Positions 68 through 4,976 of a stretch of 4,976 bases of DNA are shown piece after piece; the stretch's first letter is position 1; every line of letters starts with the position of its first letter. Position numbers and translations under genes: made by a program. The stretch comes from a virus. Taxonomy: Duplodnaviria > Heunggongvirae > Uroviricota > Caudoviricetes. The notes under the pieces are model-generated. The model made no database searches and had not been told where the DNA came from. It worked only from the letters and a program-made list of their open reading frames with translations. The stretch lies in IMG/VR virus record IMGVR_UViG_2648501400_000010. One strand, 5' to 3'.

Positions 68-1030
68 TTACCCCCTGAAGCCCGGCGGAATTTCAGTGTC
101 CGGTTCAGAAATGTGATTCACGCAACGCTGCGCAGGCGAACGCCCCAGGCGGATAACCAGTTCATCCCATTTTTCCCGGAGTTTTGCCGGACTCATGATG
201 TTTTTTACCCAGAACGAATCCCGCTGGAGACGCCCAAACATTTCACAAATTTGTCTGTGAGTTCTGCCATCCAGCATCCGCATTGTGCGAACGTCATTGG
301 CCCATGCTGTCCAGTTGGGTTCTTTCGGTCTAGTGATCTCGCCATCATCGCTGGCCGCCTGCTCGTAAAGACTCACGATTCGTCCCCAGATCCACTGTGC
401 GCACACCAAATCTTCCTGACTTCCCCACTGGCGTTTTTTCGCACTGAACACAACCGCGTCAGGGTGTCGGGTTAAAAAATCCTGTTCAGCCGTCTGCGGG
501 TCCGGTTGCGAAGCGTCCGGACAAGAAGATCTTTTATCTGACGGATCAGGTTTTAATACTGACGGATCGGGGTCAATCATCGCCCCCCTAATCGGCAGTT
601 TTTTATCAACAGTTGATCCATCAAAATTTGACGGGTCAACCGTTGAGGGGTCAATATTTGACGGGTCAACTGTTAACGGGTCATTTTTTGCCGGGCTAAT
701 TTTTCTTTTTGGTTTATATGACTCACGCGCCGCCGCCGCAGCTGCTTCGAGTTTTTCCACATTAAGCCGATAGATATTGCTTACATTACGCCCACCGACC
801 TTACGCTCTTCCTTCGTCAGCCAGCCCTCTTTCGCCAGTTCTGCAATAGCCGATTTCACTGTGGATTCACTTCTTGCACCGATCTGACGCCGGATAGTTT
901 CAATGGCAGGCCATGACACGCCCTCGTCATTGCTGTAGTCTGCAAGACGGGCCATAACCGCCACCCTGGATAAGATCATGCCGGTGAAGGCGCACCCTTC
1001 CCAGACAAGACCATGAAGCTTGCTGCTCAT
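68..1030 (-). CDS. Phage replication initiation protein, lambda O-like role (N-terminal winged-helix/HTH domain, repetitive linker, C-terminal domain)
   Basis: Long ORF in the track (68..1045, which starts at GTG). I prefer ATG at 1028-1030 (MSSKLHGLVW...) preceded by a G-rich SD. The N-terminal region (ILSRVAVMARLADYSNDEGVSWPAIETIRRQIGARSESTVKSAIAELAKEGWL) looks like the HTH domain typical of phage replication initiators. The gene sits where O (ydaU in Rac) sits, after the cro-like and cII-position genes. The linker encodes DPS(N/T)(V/I/F) pentapeptide repeats that coincide with the DNA iterons. Confidence 0.8.
   Translation of the reverse strand: MSSKLHGLVWEGCAFTGMILSRVAVMARLADYSNDEGVSWPAIETIRRQIGARSESTVKSAIAELAKEGWLTKEERKVGGRNVSNIYRLNVEKLEAAAAAARESYKPKRKISPAKNDPLTVDPSNIDPSTVDPSNFDGSTVDKKLPIRGAMIDPDPSVLKPDPSDKRSSCPDASQPDPQTAEQDFLTRHPDAVVFSAKKRQWGSQEDLVCAQWIWGRIVSLYEQAASDDGEITRPKEPNWTAWANDVRTMRMLDGRTHRQICEMFGRLQRDSFWVKNIMSPAKLREKWDELVIRLGRSPAQRCVNHISEPDTEIPPGFRG
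615..704. repeat. Phased 15-bp iteron array (consensus GACGGGTCAAnnTTT), candidate phage origin of replication embedded in the initiator gene
   Basis: Five tandem in-phase units at 630, 645, 660, 675 and 690 (gacgggtcaaccgtt / gaggggtcaatattt / gacgggtcaactgtt / aacgggtcatttttt / gccgggctaattttt). A degenerate in-phase unit lies at 615-629, and further copies at 540-554 (gacggatcaggtttt, in phase) and 567-581. Each unit ends in a T-tract, and an AT-rich stretch follows at 705-722. Confidence 0.7.
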
Positions 1031-1052
1031 AAAACCCCCGAACACCGTGCTT

Positions 1053-1478
1053 TTAGTGCATCACCACAGCATTCCCTGCCGGGCCGCCGCGATTCATCTG
1101 GTCATACAAAACAACCGCTGACGCAACAAAATCATCGACATCCTTCACCAGCCGATCCCTCCGTTCGACGATCTCACGGTAATATTCAGAACTGTGGCTG
1201 CGCATACGGGCCACCAGCAAAGGCGGCATCGCCTTTTCGATCGCCGGTAACAGAGCCTGCATTTTTTCAACAGCATCAGGGGTGTCCTTCTCCACCCAGC
1301 GGAAAATTTTCTGGGTATTACGGGCCAGGGCTTCCGGATGGCTGTCGTCGTACAGTTCCGGGAACGTCATTCCCAGCTCGAAATACGCTTTGGTAATTTT
1401 CGCAGCCGGTACTTTTTCGCCGTCCGGGTGCGCCCAGACATTCATCGCCATGCGGATGTGTTCATGCTTGATTTTCAT
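1053..1478 (-). CDS. ydaT: YdaT-family protein (CII-position regulator / toxic protein of Rac-type prophages)
   Basis: 141-aa ORF starting MKIKHEHIRMAMNVWAHPDGEKV, which I recognise as the YdaT family of Rac/CP-933P prophages (from memory, not a search). SD GGGGGTG lies upstream of the ATG (complement of 1476-1478). It is immediately downstream of, and overlaps by 17 nt, the Cro-like gene. Confidence 0.85.
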   Translation of the reverse strand: MKIKHEHIRMAMNVWAHPDGEKVPAAKITKAYFELGMTFPELYDDSHPEALARNTQKIFRWVEKDTPDAVEKMQALLPAIEKAMPPLLVARMRSHSSEYYREIVERRDRLVKDVDDFVASAVVLYDQMNRGGPAGNAVVMH

Positions 1479-1737
1479 GAATCACCCCCGCCTCTGGTTG
1501 TGTGTTAGCCTGATACTCGACAGGTAAGCCGTCGGTTGGGTTGGGATAAGTACTGCCATCAATCTCGTGCGGAGTTACTATCCAGCCTGTTGCTTCGCAC
1601 CAGCGTAAAATTTTTTTCCCCGTAAGTTTCGCCCGTCCGGTAATGACATGGCTTACCATCCCTTGGGTTACCCCAACAATTTCAGCAAAATGCTTCTGAG
1701 TTATACCGGAATGATGCAAATATTCTCCAAGATTCAT
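1462..1737 (-). CDS. ydaS: Cro-like HTH DNA-binding protein (YdaS family)
   Basis: 91-aa ORF with a Cro/CI-type helix-turn-helix (QKHFAEIVGVTQGMVSHVITGRAKLTGKKILRW). SD AGGTGA (complement of 1741-1746) is 3 nt from the ATG. It is divergently transcribed from the repressor gene, the classic cro position. Confidence 0.8.
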   Translation of the reverse strand: MNLGEYLHHSGITQKHFAEIVGVTQGMVSHVITGRAKLTGKKILRWCEATGWIVTPHEIDGSTYPNPTDGLPVEYQANTQPEAGVIHENQA

Positions 1738-1844
1738 TGTTCACCTCATGTGATGTCATCACGATCATTAATAGCATTGTTATTTTTAAAAGTAAATAGC
1801 ATCACTATTTCAAAGAGATTAATAATCTTATTAGAATTGAAGGT
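1738..1844. promoter_or_regulatory. Divergent promoter/operator region (OR-like) between the cro-like gene and the repressor gene
   Basis: Perfect 17-bp inverted repeat AAATAG-CATCA-CTATTT at 1794-1810 and weaker copy TAATAG-CATTG-TTATTT at 1769-1785, centres 25 bp apart. Leftward promoter candidates on the minus strand: -35 TTTACT (complement of 1791-1796), 17-bp spacer, -10 TATTAA (complement of 1768-1773). Additional 11-bp palindrome TGATGTCATCA at 1751-1761 near the predicted start. Rightward -10-like AATAAT at 1821-1826 with no good -35. Confidence 0.55.
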
Positions 1845-2345
1845 ATGAAAAGAAAATCCCTGTCAGAGATCGACCTGCAAGCCGCCCAGAGACTGAAAGA
1901 AATCTGGACGGCGAAAAAAAATCAACTAGGGTTAACCCAAGAGCGTGCGGCAGAAATTCTGGGATTTTCGACACAGGGAGCTGTAAGCCATTATCTAAAT
2001 GGTCAGACACCTTTAAATCTTGAGGCTGTTATCAAGTTCGCAGGGTTGCTGCAAGTTCCTCCCGAGTCAATCAGACCAGATATGGCCGAGTTGTTACAAA
2101 TTGTAAGGATGTATCCCCAAGAATCTGGGGAGGACAATGTTGTCACTATATCTGCAGATATGGAACAATCGGAAAACGAACTTCCGTTTAATATAGACCC
2201 CATGGAGCGGGATTTGCTCCAGACGTTCAGGGCTTTCCCCAAAGAAGATAAAGAGAAAATGCTTAAGGAAATGAAGGAGAAAAAAGAATCAATTGAAGAA
2301 ATCGTTGCGCGATGGCTAGCTGCGCAAAAGGGTCGTCGCGCCTAA
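1845..2345 (+). CDS. paaR: Prophage repressor, XRE-family HTH, no peptidase S24 domain (RacR / PaaR-like)
   Basis: 166-aa ORF with an N-terminal XRE-type HTH (LTQERAAEILGFSTQGAVSHYLNGQTP) and an acidic/lysine-rich C-terminus without the Ser-Lys autoprotease motifs of LexA/CI. It sits divergent from the cro-like gene and directly upstream of a small-antitoxin/ParE pair, the paaR-paaA-parE arrangement. The symbol is by architecture only; paralogue 1 versus 2 cannot be told. Confidence 0.8.
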   Translation: MKRKSLSEIDLQAAQRLKEIWTAKKNQLGLTQERAAEILGFSTQGAVSHYLNGQTPLNLEAVIKFAGLLQVPPESIRPDMAELLQIVRMYPQESGEDNVVTISADMEQSENELPFNIDPMERDLLQTFRAFPKEDKEKMLKEMKEKKESIEEIVARWLAAQKGRRA

Positions 2346-2362
2346 TCTGAGGAGGTAAAAAC

Positions 2363-2554
2363 ATGAGTACAGCCCTTTCCCCGATAATTTCTGAATTTGA
2401 AACAGTCGAACAAGAAAACAGCTATAACGAATGGTTGCGAACCAAAGTGGCAGCAAGCCTCTCAGATCCCCGTCCTGCAATTCCACATGACGAAGTAATG
2501 GCTGAAATGGAAAACCTTATTGCTCAATTAGCTGCAACGAACAGGAGTGAGTAA
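2363..2554 (+). CDS. paaA: Small antitoxin of a ParE-type toxin-antitoxin module (PaaA-like, 63 aa)
   Basis: 63-aa ORF with SD AGGAGG at 2350-2355 and a 7-nt spacer. Its stop TAA overlaps the start of the downstream ParE-like gene (TAATG at 2552-2556). Size and position between a regulator and ParE match the PaaA antitoxins. Acidic, low-complexity and probably disordered. Confidence 0.7.
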   Translation: MSTALSPIISEFETVEQENSYNEWLRTKVAASLSDPRPAIPHDEVMAEMENLIAQLAATNRSE

Positions 2555-2844
2555 TGCTGCCCATTTTATGGCTACCTTCTGCACGTGATGATTTACGTCA
2601 GATCGTAGCCTATATTGCTAAGGAAAACCCTCCCGCTGCACGTAGACTAAAAATACGCATTGAAACATCAGTTTTGTCACTTACTGAACACCCTTATCTG
2701 TACCCACCGAGCGAAAGAGTTCCAAGTCTTCGTGAGATAGTGACTCATCCTAACTACATAATACTTTACCGAGTAACAGCATCTAACATCGAGATCGTAA
2801 ATGTAGTTCACTCACGAAGACAGTATCCAAACAAAACCTGTTAA
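2554..2844 (+). CDS. parE: ParE/RelE-superfamily toxin (ParE-like, gyrase-poisoning class)
   Basis: 96-aa ORF (MLPILWLPSARDDLRQIVAYIAKENPPAARRLKIRIETSVLSL...REIVTHPNYIILYRV...IEIVNVVHSRR) with the sequence pattern characteristic of ParE toxins (W near the N-terminus, DL..I..YIA, R.L...I, PY.G/P, REL/REI, Y.I.YRV, IEI..V.H.RR). Translationally coupled to the upstream small ORF. Confidence 0.85.
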   Translation: MLPILWLPSARDDLRQIVAYIAKENPPAARRLKIRIETSVLSLTEHPYLYPPSERVPSLREIVTHPNYIILYRVTASNIEIVNVVHSRRQYPNKTC

Positions 2845-2858
2845 TCCTTCCTGTCAAC

Positions 2859-2882
2859 AACCACCTTCGGGTGGTTTTTTTC
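2859..2882 (+). terminator. Rho-independent terminator after the toxin gene
   Basis: Stem AACCACC (2859-2865), loop TTCG, stem GGTGGTT (2870-2876), followed by a T-run to 2881, 15 nt after the parE-like stop. A T-tract is present only on the plus strand, so it is unidirectional. Confidence 0.75.
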
Positions 2883-2891
2883 TTGCCACGA

Positions 2892-2934
2892 TAATAGCAC
2901 TGCTATTTACATAATTAAATAGTAGTGGTATTGT
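2892..2934 (+). promoter_or_regulatory. PL-like promoter with paired operators for the rightward small-gene operon
   Basis: Operator-like inverted repeat TAATAG-CACTG-CTATTT at 2892-2908 and weaker AAATAG-TAGTG-GTATTG at 2917-2933, centres 25 bp apart. -35 TTTACA at 2906-2911, 17-bp spacer, -10 TATTGT at 2929-2934. Same motif and geometry as the sites at 1769-1810. Confidence 0.55.
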
Positions 2935-3026: not shown

Positions 3027-3269
3027 ATGAACATGACGGCGGGAACACTTTATATAACAGCGCAGCAGTTTTTTAGTTCCGCTACCCCGGCGTTAAGGGG
3101 AAATGAGGTCAACATGGATATGCTCAATCTTGGCAACAACGAATCTCTGGTATGTGGCGTGTTCCCCAACCAGGACGGTACGTTCACCGCGATGACGTAT
3201 ACCAAAAGCAAAACGTTTAAAACCGAAAATGGTGCCCGTCGCTGGCTGGAAAGAAACTCAGGTGAGTGA
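3027..3269 (+). CDS. Small prophage early protein (80 aa from ATG 3027, or 51 aa from ATG 3114); resembles the small YdaF/YdaG-class proteins of Rac
   Basis: ORF in track. ATG 3114 has the better SD (GAGG 3105-3108, 5-nt spacer); ATG 3027 has GAGG with a 3-nt spacer. The 51-aa form (MDMLNLGNNESLVCGVFPNQDGTFTAMTYTKSKTFKTENGARRWLERNSGE) matches the size I recall for Rac YdaF, but I cannot verify identity. First gene after the PL-like promoter. Confidence 0.6.
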   Translation: MNMTAGTLYITAQQFFSSATPALRGNEVNMDMLNLGNNESLVCGVFPNQDGTFTAMTYTKSKTFKTENGARRWLERNSGE

Positions 3270-3270
3270 T

Positions 3271-3399
3271 ATGGATTTCGACACAATCATGGAAAAGGCT
3301 TACGAAGAATACTTCGATGGTCTTGCCGAAGGCGAAGAAGCTCTCAGCTTCAGTGAATTTAAACAGGCGCTTTCCAGTTCGGGAAAATCTAACGGCTGA
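3271..3399 (+). CDS. Small protein, 42 aa (MDFDTIMEKAYEEYFDGLAEGEEALSFSEFKQALSSSGKSNG), not in the supplied ORF track
   Basis: Own translation. ATG at 3271 is preceded by a strong SD AGGTGA (3260-3265, 5-nt spacer). The start sits 1 nt after the stop of the upstream ORF (TGAtATG), consistent with translational coupling. Acidic and helical in character. Confidence 0.55.
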   Translation: MDFDTIMEKAYEEYFDGLAEGEEALSFSEFKQALSSSGKSNG

Positions 3400-3428: not shown

Positions 3429-3647
3429 ATGCAGAAACGAGAACCCGTCATCATCGCGCCAGACTATACCGATGATGAACTTTATGAGTGGATGCGCCAG
3501 AAAATTAATGCAGCGCAGGATCTGAAATGGGCCAATGAAGCCAGGACTAAGCAGGCTGAAAATCTGTCCGCTCTGGAGCAGGATATCACCAGGCTGGAAA
3601 AAGCAGCGGCATTAAGCATTGCCAGAATGGTTACATACCCACGTTAA
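3429..3647 (+). CDS. Hypothetical small early protein, 72 aa, predicted coiled-coil
   Basis: ORF in track. SD GAGGA at 3418-3422 with a 6-nt spacer; 29 nt after the previous stop. Sequence (…AAQDLKWANEARTKQAENLSALEQDITRLEKAAALSIARM) is heptad-like. The position is analogous to the kil/host-takeover genes of the lambda PL operon, but there is no sequence-level identification. Confidence 0.6.
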   Translation: MQKREPVIIAPDYTDDELYEWMRQKINAAQDLKWANEARTKQAENLSALEQDITRLEKAAALSIARMVTYPR

Positions 3648-3669: not shown

Positions 3670-4044
3670 ATGGAATTTAAAGATTTACCAATGCCATTCC
3701 AGGAAATGGCAGCGAATATAGTTCGTTCCCAACTGGCGACTCTTGACCTGAGTACCGTAGAAAAAGAAACCATCGATACTATATCCGGTAACGTGCGTCG
3801 TGCCTTTATCGGTCTGTACGAAGAGAAGCAGCTCTCTGATAACCAGGATTTACATGAAAAATACTTCCTGGAATTAATGGACATCATTAATAAAGGATTT
3901 GGCTTGTTAATGAAAAAGAAAGGGATTCGAATAGCTCCCCTTGAAAATCATTTTACAGCGAGCAGTATTAATTCCTGTGATTTAAAGCATCACACATCCG
4001 ATGGGAAAGTTGAATCAAACAACAAAATATCAATTAATCATTAA
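3670..4044 (+). CDS. Hypothetical protein, 124 aa, AT-rich 3-prime half (possible accessory/moron gene)
   Basis: ORF in track. SD GAGG at 3660-3663 with a 6-nt spacer; 22 nt after the previous stop. No recognisable domain by eye and no transmembrane segment. The C-terminal third is low-complexity and AT-rich (…SSINSCDLKHHTSDGKVESNNKISINH). Confidence 0.55.
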   Translation: MEFKDLPMPFQEMAANIVRSQLATLDLSTVEKETIDTISGNVRRAFIGLYEEKQLSDNQDLHEKYFLELMDIINKGFGLLMKKKGIRIAPLENHFTASSINSCDLKHHTSDGKVESNNKISINH

Positions 4045-4275: not shown

Positions 4276-4335
4276 CGTTGCGGACACCGGGTTGTCAGGT
4301 TGACCATACGCTTAAGTGACAACCCCGCTGCAACG
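4276..4335. other. Long imperfect hairpin / cruciform-capable element (about 17 bp paired over 60 nt)
   Basis: Outer stem 4276-4283 (cgttgcgg) pairs with 4328-4335 (8 pairs including one G-U). Inner perfect 9-bp stem GGGTTGTCA (4289-4297) pairs with TGACAACCC (4317-4325). 19-nt loop. No T-tract immediately after it on either strand, so it is not a canonical terminator. Confidence 0.5.
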
Positions 4336-4577
4336 CCCTCTGTTATCAATTTTCTGGTGACGTTTGGCGGTATCAGTTTTACTCCGTGACTGCTCTGCCG
4401 CCCTTTTTAAAGTGAATTTTGTGATGTGGTGAATGCGGCTGAGCGCACGCGGAACAGTTAAAACCAAAAACAGTGTTATGGGTGGATTCTCTGTATCCGG
4501 CGTTAATTGTTAACTGGTTAACGTCACCTGGAGGCACCAGGCACCGCATCACAAAATTCATTGTTGAGGACGCGATA

Positions 4578-4766
4578 ATGGAAACGTTATTACCAAACGT
4601 TAATACGTCTGAAGGTTGTTTTGAAATTGGTGTCACTATCAGTAACCCTGTATTTACTGAAGATGCCATTAACAAGAGAAAACACGAACGGGAGTTATTA
4701 AATAAAATATGCATTCTTTCAATGCTGGCCCGTTTACGTCCGATACAAAAAGGATGCTGGCAATGA
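4578..4766 (+). CDS. Hypothetical small protein, 62 aa (METLLPNVNTSEGCFEIGVTISNPVFTEDAINKRKHERELLNKICILSMLARLRPIQKGCWQ)
   Basis: Internal ATG of track ORF 4473..4766. SD GAGGA at 4566-4570 with a 7-nt spacer; the upstream ATG at 4473 has no SD. Stop overlaps the start of the next ORF (ATGA at 4763-4766). Confidence 0.45.
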   Translation: METLLPNVNTSEGCFEIGVTISNPVFTEDAINKRKHERELLNKICILSMLARLRPIQKGCWQ

Positions 4767-4954
4767 ATACAGCATTTGCACTTGTTCTGACAGTTTTTCT
4801 TGTTTCCGGAGAGCCAGTTGATATTGCAGTCAGTGTTCACAGGACAATGCAGGAGTGTGTGACTGCAGCAACCGAACAGAAAATTCCCGGTAACTGTTAC
4901 CCGGTCGATAAAGTTATTCACCAGGATAATAACGAAATCCCGGCAGGTCTTTAA
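4763..4954 (+). CDS. Hypothetical small protein, 63 aa, with N-terminal hydrophobic segment (signal peptide or membrane anchor) and two Cys
   Basis: In frame with track ORF 4709..4954. ATG at 4763 overlaps the stop of the upstream ORF (ATGA); AAGGA at 4749-4753. Sequence MNTAFALVLTVFLVSGEPVDIAVSVHRTMQECVTAATEQKIPGNCYPVDKVIHQDNNEIPAGL has about 15 hydrophobic residues at the N-terminus. Confidence 0.45.
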   Translation: MNTAFALVLTVFLVSGEPVDIAVSVHRTMQECVTAATEQKIPGNCYPVDKVIHQDNNEIPAGL

Positions 4955-4976
4955 AACAGTTCCGTAATAAACATCC

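Follow-up and report, generated by a model that had tools for sequence, protein, structure and literature searches.

The pair of small overlapping open reading frames at positions 4578-4954 of the window (the whole 4,976-nucleotide stretch of the Caudoviricetes record IMGVR_UViG_2648501400_000010 that we analyzed) is almost certainly dicB and ydfD, which together make up the distal part of a Qin-type dicBF operon carried by an Escherichia coli lambdoid prophage in its early-left arm. The pair is real but ordinary, in that both genes are already known: work on dicB, ydfD and dicF under these names in E. coli K-12 goes back to the late 1980s, with accounts of how they act appearing from 2002 to 2023. 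A preliminary description, made from the letters alone, had taken the frames for small prophage accessory proteins (toxins, exclusion or lysis-modulating peptides). It had the kind of protein right, as DicB and YdfD show, and missed that these are the named and characterized genes of the dicBF operon. The ATGA overlap and the Shine-Dalgarno (SD) sequence that it had assigned to each frame are present as described, with coordinates exact to the base. The features of the pair and of the small RNA upstream of it are as follows.

4352..4403, plus strand: DicF small RNA (Rfam RF00039, 76.7 bits against a gathering score of 48, E = 2.8e-16, full length 1-52).
4566..4570, plus strand: dicB SD sequence GAGGA, 7 nt 5' of the ATG, read directly from the sequence.
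4578..4766, plus strand: dicB coding sequence (ORF1), 62 aa, ATG at 4578 and TGA at 4764..4766, for a cell-division inhibitor and phage-exclusion protein.
4750..4754, plus strand: ydfD SD sequence AAGGA, within the 3' end of dicB and 8 nt 5' of the ydfD ATG.
4763..4766, plus strand: ATGA overlap of the ydfD ATG with the dicB TGA, also a direct reading.
4763..4954, plus strand: ydfD coding sequence (ORF2), 63 aa, ATG at 4763 and TAA at 4952..4954, for a DUF1482 lysis protein.

Homology searching, a check suggested in the preliminary description, gives both frames a name and establishes the parts directly. ORF1 matches the Pfam family PF05358 (DicB) from end to end (E = 1.7e-37; 127.4 bits, cutoff 27; residues 1-62 of 62) and, with 132.7 bits where the curated cutoff is 100, the NCBIfam model NF049927, "cell division inhibition protein DicB". 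It aligns without gaps and at equal length with K-12 DicB, sharing 55 of 62 residues (89%), and four of the seven substitutions lie within the last nine residues. ORF2 matches Pfam PF07358 (DUF1482; E = 3.7e-25, 88.0 bits against a cutoff of 25, profile positions 1-57 of 57) and phrog_1092 (E = 2e-37), and is identical to K-12 YdfD at 59 of 63 residues (94%), the differences being T3S, A6V, V33M and N57I. A PDB sequence search with DicB and YdfD returned no solved relative, the best hit being a chance match to a ribosomal protein (E = 0.21). DicF, an antisense regulator of ftsZ and manX, lies 175 nt upstream of dicB, aligns with K-12 dicF without a difference and has its stem followed by a terminator run of TTTTT.

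At the DNA level, positions 4300-4976 are 98% identical to K-12 and find a match in 4,649 of 5,426 complete E. coli genomes; among the matches listed, ten are 100% identical and carry annotated dicB and DUF1482/ydfD genes. The K-12 MG1655 record annotates the order ydfA, ydfB, ydfC, dicF, dicB, ydfD in the Qin cryptic prophage, with a dicB/ydfD overlap of 4 bases and the product name "lysis protein" for ydfD. K-12 Qin dicB-ydfD (b1575, b1576) thus shares with the window the position after dicF, the ATGA overlap, the SD sequences and the upstream ydfABC genes. The cassette also occurs in functional lambdoid phages (among them Escherichia phage mEp460, Tritos and HannyBb), whose records are phage genomes and not parts of a chromosome. 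In mEp460 it occupies the same place as in the window, between the repressor and the exonuclease-xis-int genes; its YdfD is 100% identical to that of the window and its DicB differs by one residue, although the start annotated for dicB in the mEp460 record lies further upstream and gives a 94-aa protein.

The surroundings of the pair are those of a dicBF-type operon, with DicF and ydfABC upstream and a helix-turn-helix (HTH) repressor/cro-like pair further upstream. From the far end of the window towards dicF, we recognized the following features.

68..1045: replication-initiator-like gene, divergent from the repressor.
1053..1478: YdaT-family gene, divergent from the repressor.
1462..1737: HTH Cro-like gene, divergent from the repressor.
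1845..2345: HTH repressor.
2363..2554: PaaA2 (PF21217, E = 1e-21).
2554..2844: ParE (PF05016, E = 6.6e-18).
2859..2876: terminator-like hairpin.
2906..2934, plus strand: candidate PL/dicBp-like promoter, from a consensus scan (TTTACA-17-TATTGT, extended TG).
3114..3269, plus strand: ydfA (DUF1391), first gene of the dicBF-type operon (tblastn with K-12 YdfA, 92% over 1-51; PF07151, E = 2.1e-28).
3271..3399, plus strand: ydfB (tblastn with K-12 YdfB, 95% over 1-42; phrog_2061).
3429..3647, plus strand: ydfC (tblastn with K-12 YdfC, 96% over 1-72; phrog_1744).
3670..4044: extra 124-aa ORF between ydfC and dicF (phrog_6937), absent from K-12.

In gene content, two differences set the window apart from K-12 Qin. 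The 124-aa ORF between ydfC and dicF is found in the window and not in Qin, and the immunity genes are of another type: Qin has DicA/DicC, whereas the window has a PaaR2/YdaS/YdaT arrangement with paaA2-parE2, as described for prophage CP-933P of O157:H7 (PMC8630535). The candidate promoter is flanked by two operator-like 15-mers (2893-2907 and 2917-2931), and the motif that they have in common, AATAGCAnnGnTATT, recurs in the repressor/cro intergenic region (1770-1784 and 1795-1809). We regard 2906..2934 as a putative promoter with its operators, and because the 15-mers both flank it and recur beside the repressor, the operon is probably controlled here by the PaaR2-type repressor.

Homologues of YdfD extend beyond dicB-bearing elements. 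DUF1482 proteins with 36-50% identity to that of the window occur in phage PPompW, Citrobacter phage Omnitron, Salmonella phage SW-37 and several Klebsiella phages, where their genes lie downstream of a repressor and upstream of an exonuclease, as in the window. Wherever the genes are intact, the start codon of the DUF1482 gene shares bases with the stop codon of a small ORF upstream: the overlap is ATGA in K-12, Escherichia ruysiae, Escherichia albertii, mEp460 and the Klebsiella phages, GTGA in PPompW and TGATG in the homologues from Citrobacter and Salmonella phages, and K-12, E. ruysiae and the Klebsiella phages keep an AAGGA or AAAGGA SD sequence. This conserved geometry is a direct observation, and so is the variety of the upstream partners. 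In PPompW the partner is a DicB whose C-terminal third has diverged (PF05358, E = 3.7e-38); the Klebsiella and Raoultella partners are 37-40 aa proteins of phrog_22279, and the Citrobacter and Salmonella partners are 66-aa proteins of phrog_3722. Neither phrog_22279 nor phrog_3722 partners match DicB, and a Pfam check of the Klebsiella 37-40 aa upstream peptides likewise gave no DicB match. The DUF1482 proteins of these Klebsiella, Raoultella, Citrobacter and Salmonella elements match PF07358 (E = 3e-15 to 5e-18), are 36-45% identical to the YdfD of the window and share with it the hydrophobic N-terminus, the cysteine pair and G16. Since the overlap persists where the partner is not DicB, the comparison of gene neighbourhoods indicates that it is a property of the DUF1482 position and is not tied to DicB. 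The non-DicB partners may be analogous to DicB in function, and could be division inhibitors or brakes on YdfD. A scan of genome contigs gave only six loci, one of them in a metagenome-assembled genome labelled Veillonella that is probably mis-binned E. coli DNA; this locus was left out of the taxonomic evidence.

The N-terminus of YdfD, which reads MNTAFALVLTVFLVSGEP, is a point on which we depart from the preliminary description. Its hydrophobic stretch is there, as residues 4-16 (AFALVLTVFLVSG), with an 11-residue Kyte-Doolittle mean that peaks at 2.95 at residue 4, and so are its two cysteines, C32 and C45. In our family alignment of 26 sequences from Escherichia, Shigella, Klebsiella and Raoultella, both cysteines are invariant, as are L7, L9, G16, A35, A36, Q39, E58 and P60, all ten residues being present in the protein of the window. 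From these features it had been proposed that ORF2 is targeted to the membrane and could form a periplasmic disulfide, and one can build on them a reading in which a Sec signal peptide or anchor exports the protein, its cysteines pair in the periplasm and it acts on the envelope from outside the cytoplasm. An h-region is indeed present, the V-S-G at its end, with the invariant G16 and a conserved small-residue position after the run, could fit the -3/-1 cleavage rule, the invariant cysteine pair is what a structural disulfide would leave, and the phenotype is one of envelope failure and lysis (PMC8835842). We nevertheless consider export improbable. The n-region has no lysine or arginine, as is the case before the hydrophobic run in 24 of the 26 aligned members including that of the window, which is atypical for Sec signals, and at about 13 residues the unbroken run is shorter than one would expect of a transmembrane helix. 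IspG, reported as the target, resides in the cytoplasm and is still bound by YdfD mutants without cysteines (PMC8835842), so that neither the membrane targeting nor the periplasmic disulfide finds support. A C-terminal fragment without the N-terminal domain kills less effectively but still kills, according to the summary of Masuda 2016 given in PMC8835842, and this points to intracellular action.

Structure prediction, likewise suggested in the preliminary description, renders the hydrophobic segment as a beta-strand and not as a helix. AlphaFold2 pairs residues 5-12 and 18-26 in a beta-hairpin and, when given the family alignment, packs it on a helix (29-39), followed by a short strand (44-47), membranes and signal cleavage being outside the scope of AlphaFold. 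The mean pLDDT rises from 67 with the single sequence to 76 once the family alignment is supplied, with about 80-89 over residues 1-50, and the five models agree (72.5-76). A Foldseek search of the model against the PDB returned nothing significant (best E = 2.1), and the fold therefore gives no functional lead. On these models, which we treat as a lead, the hydrophobic N-terminus may be the core beta-strand of a soluble beta-beta-alpha-beta mini-domain and not a membrane anchor. The combined proposal, that DUF1482 lysis genes form a modular two-gene early-left cassette of enterobacterial lambdoid phages, always overlapping an exchangeable upstream partner, and that the YdfD N-terminus would be a beta-strand of a soluble domain, is one that we put forward tentatively and hold to be somewhat doubtful.

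What we say of the biochemical activities of DicB and YdfD comes from published work on their K-12 orthologues, and it is by analogy that we would expect this allele to behave like that of K-12. [quoted passage not shown] DicA, a CI-like protein, represses the operon, which can be derepressed through an antirepressor, spontaneously or under stress (PMC10448788). DicF base-pairs with ftsZ mRNA, and DicB binds MinC and brings it to the septum via ZipA, where the Z ring is depolymerized; the DicB-MinC interaction is also required for inhibition of ManYZ and hence for the block to lambda DNA entry (PMC6832061). YdfD overexpression leads to lysis, which co-expression of DicB or of the unrelated FtsZ inhibitor SulA prevents (Masuda 2016, as related in PMC8835842); because both division inhibitors prevent it, the lysis is division-dependent. 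Binding of YdfD to IspG was reported by Lu et al. from pull-down, size-exclusion chromatography, isothermal titration calorimetry and FRET, in a single study with a Kd of 18 uM and without enzyme kinetics; it maps to the hydrophobic N-terminal 28 residues of YdfD, and overexpression of ispG or supply of HMBPP rescues cells (PMC8835842). On removal of the K-12 CRISPR array, raised ydfD mRNA and lysis have been reported (PMC9782134).

Carried over to the window, these observations suggest the following course of events. The prophage repressor would keep the dicBF-type operon silent, and derepression would yield a single polycistronic mRNA from which RNase III and RNase E would liberate DicF, blocking ftsZ translation. 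Ribosomes reading on would make DicB, which together with MinC would go to the septum via ZipA and break FtsZ rings, giving filaments, while the same complex would inhibit ManYZ and keep out the DNA of lambda-like phages. Ribosomes ending at the dicB TGA could begin again at the ATG that overlaps it, which has an SD sequence 8 nt 5', and YdfD would then be made in step with DicB. [quoted passage not shown]

Translational coupling of dicB and ydfD is what the overlap geometry, taken by itself, would suggest, and ydfD, having its own SD sequence, could also initiate independently; coupling would set the ratio of DicB to YdfD. A hairpin that enforces coupling by occluding the ydfD SD sequence was considered and dropped: the minimum free energy of the RNA at the dicB/ydfD junction is no better than that of shuffled sequences (z = 0.19), and there is thus no sign that the SD sequence is occluded.

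The restraint of YdfD by DicB invites comparison with type II toxin-antitoxin pairs, in which case DicB would neutralize YdfD through direct binding. As in many such operons, the antidote gene precedes the toxin gene and overlaps it by 4 nt; DUF1482 genes elsewhere likewise overlap a small upstream ORF; and the abolition of YdfD lysis by DicB (PMC8835842) is what an antitoxin would achieve. However, SulA, which is unrelated, protects equally well (PMC8835842), and protection therefore acts via the division block and not via binding. Moreover, overexpressed DicB is itself toxic, and the operon is under a phage repressor and not autoregulated (PMC10448788). We reject the toxin-antitoxin reading on this literature, chiefly on the SulA result, and regard it as highly improbable.

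The reading of the pair as dicB and ydfD also requires that the two plus-strand frames be genes. They are both intact in E. ruysiae, E. albertii and phages PPompW and mEp460, and wherever divergence suffices to measure it, dN/dS is about 0.1-0.5 in both frames. Nei-Gojobori estimates are about 0.1-0.2 against E. albertii, for dicB and ydfD alike, and about 0.4-0.5 against the far more divergent copy in PPompW; third codon positions hold 31 of the 65 variable sites in dicB and 46 of 100 in ydfD. This pattern of substitution indicates directly that both frames are under purifying selection and are more than chance ORFs. The longest ORF of the interval is on the other strand.

4379..4921, minus strand: antisense 180-aa ORF with a GTG start, judged non-coding.

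That this ORF could be the real gene and the two plus-strand frames the chance ones has next to no probability, even though it is the longest of the interval and its frame is also open in mEp460 and contig L006, because the equivalent frame has stops in relatives in which the plus-strand genes are intact (one in K-12, two in E. ruysiae, two in E. albertii and four in PPompW), the GTG start is gone in contig L006, E. albertii and PPompW, the ORF has no match in Pfam, PHROGs or NCBIfam, it crosses the DicF gene and would run opposite an experimentally detected RNA, neither of the two RefSeq records inspected annotates it, and the purifying-selection signal and the family matches belong to the plus-strand frames. 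As a gene it is effectively refuted, in agreement with the preliminary description, which had suspected an artefact.

The closest functional parallels to DicB are Kil of lambda and KilR of the Rac prophage, which are also small proteins of the early left operon that block FtsZ ring formation on derepression. Kil acts on FtsZ/ZipA directly, whereas DicB acts through MinC, and neither Kil nor KilR has a known sequence relationship to DicB. To our knowledge, no DUF1482 gene follows them. For YdfD the parallels are the single-gene lysis proteins, namely E of phiX174, which targets MraY, A2 of Qbeta, which targets MurA, and LysM of phage M, which targets MurJ; like YdfD, they are small and lyse growing or dividing cells by blocking cell-wall precursors and not by murein breakdown (PMC8835842). 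In contrast to these, YdfD belongs to a tailed temperate phage type with its own holin-endolysin cassette elsewhere, and its gene lies in an early operon and not a late one. Its reported target IspG acts upstream of the lipid carrier, whereas those of the single-gene lysis proteins are in the murein pathway, and it has no sequence similarity to them.

As a discovery, the pair matters little, because its genes and mechanisms have long been known. In the window the cassette is joined to immunity genes of another type (PaaR2/YdaS/YdaT with paaA2-parE2), an instance of mosaic exchange among lambdoid early regions. The overlap of DUF1482 genes with non-DicB partners, together with the predicted beta-strand N-terminus, could be of small follow-up value to those working on prophage toxicity and single-gene lysis, and the beta-strand, if true, would alter the view of how YdfD reaches its target.

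The immunity region of the window is of the CP-933P type. It contains an operon in which a PaaR2-like HTH repressor of 166 aa is encoded together with the antitoxin PaaA2 (PF21217) and the toxin ParE (PF05016), and it faces a second gene group on the opposite strand. The repressor module to which the dicBF-type operon is attached here is therefore not the DicA/DicC module of K-12. The features of this part of the window, together with an additional ORF within the dicBF-type operon, are as follows:

1053..1737, minus strand, HTH Cro-like gene and YdaT-family gene
1770..1809, pair of operator-like 15-mers in the repressor/cro intergenic region
1845..2844, plus strand, immunity operon (HTH repressor, PaaA2 antitoxin and ParE toxin)
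2893..2934, pair of operator-like 15-mers flanking the -35 of a promoter-like site
3670..4044, plus strand, 124-aa ORF (phrog_6937, E=3e-78, unknown function)

All four operator-like 15-mers in the window have the form AATAGCAnnGnTATT, and the promoter-like site (TTTACA-17-TATTGT) is immediately 5' of ydfA. The presence of these 15-mers at both the promoter-like site and the repressor/cro region suggests that an OL/PL analogue controls the genes from ydfA through ydfD. The 124-aa ORF, which separates ydfC from dicF, is missing from the Qin prophage of K-12, where homology resumes directly 3' of the ORF.

The dicB reading frame remains open for 35 codons 5' of the accepted ATG, up to a GTG at 4473 (4473..4577, plus strand). 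Of the two forms, it is the short one that has a Shine-Dalgarno sequence and that is used in K-12 and RefSeq; the mEp460 record annotates dicB in a long version of 94 aa. The DicB allele of the window differs most from that of K-12 at its C-terminus, which is also the variable part in phage PPompW_EH2246 (L010, 1310..1683). This DicB variant retains the N-terminal 40 residues, followed by an unrelated-looking C-terminal third (…LLNDNSILSRIALLELGIIGEQQ), and its partner is a YdfD homologue of 50% identity with a GTG start.

For YdfD (4763..4954), AlphaFold2 with a 26-sequence alignment predicted a mini-domain of the form beta(5-12)-beta(18-26)-alpha(29-39)-beta(44-47) with a disordered C-terminal tail (56-63; pLDDT 76, pTM 0.59). 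In this model, the hydrophobic N-terminus forms a strand instead of a helix. A Foldseek search of the PDB with this model found no similar structure.

In Klebsiella, Citrobacter and Salmonella phages, too, a small ORF lies 5' of the YdfD-like DUF1482 gene and is overlapped by it at the stop codon, as can be seen at the following comparison loci:

L011 and L012, 1301..1698 in both, DUF1482 gene and upstream ORF
L013 and L014, 1391..1692 in both, DUF1482 gene and upstream ORF
L015, 1382..1695, DUF1482 gene and upstream ORF

Instead of DicB, the partner ORF 5' of DUF1482 in these phages encodes a product of 37-40 aa (phrog_22279) or 66 aa (phrog_3722), in either case of unknown function. A 22.9-kb contig labelled as a Veillonella parvula MAG (L006, JAGZPX010000007.1) carries a dicB-ydfD pair of the E. 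coli type (YdfD, 87% identity); the most likely explanation is mis-binning of enterobacterial DNA and not a true extension of host range. In the Shigella flexneri copy, ydfD is frameshifted and only fragments are left (L008, 1416..1581), and in Escherichia phage 204576 it is shortened to 52 aa (L016, 1501..1659), so that some lineages show decay of the lysis gene.
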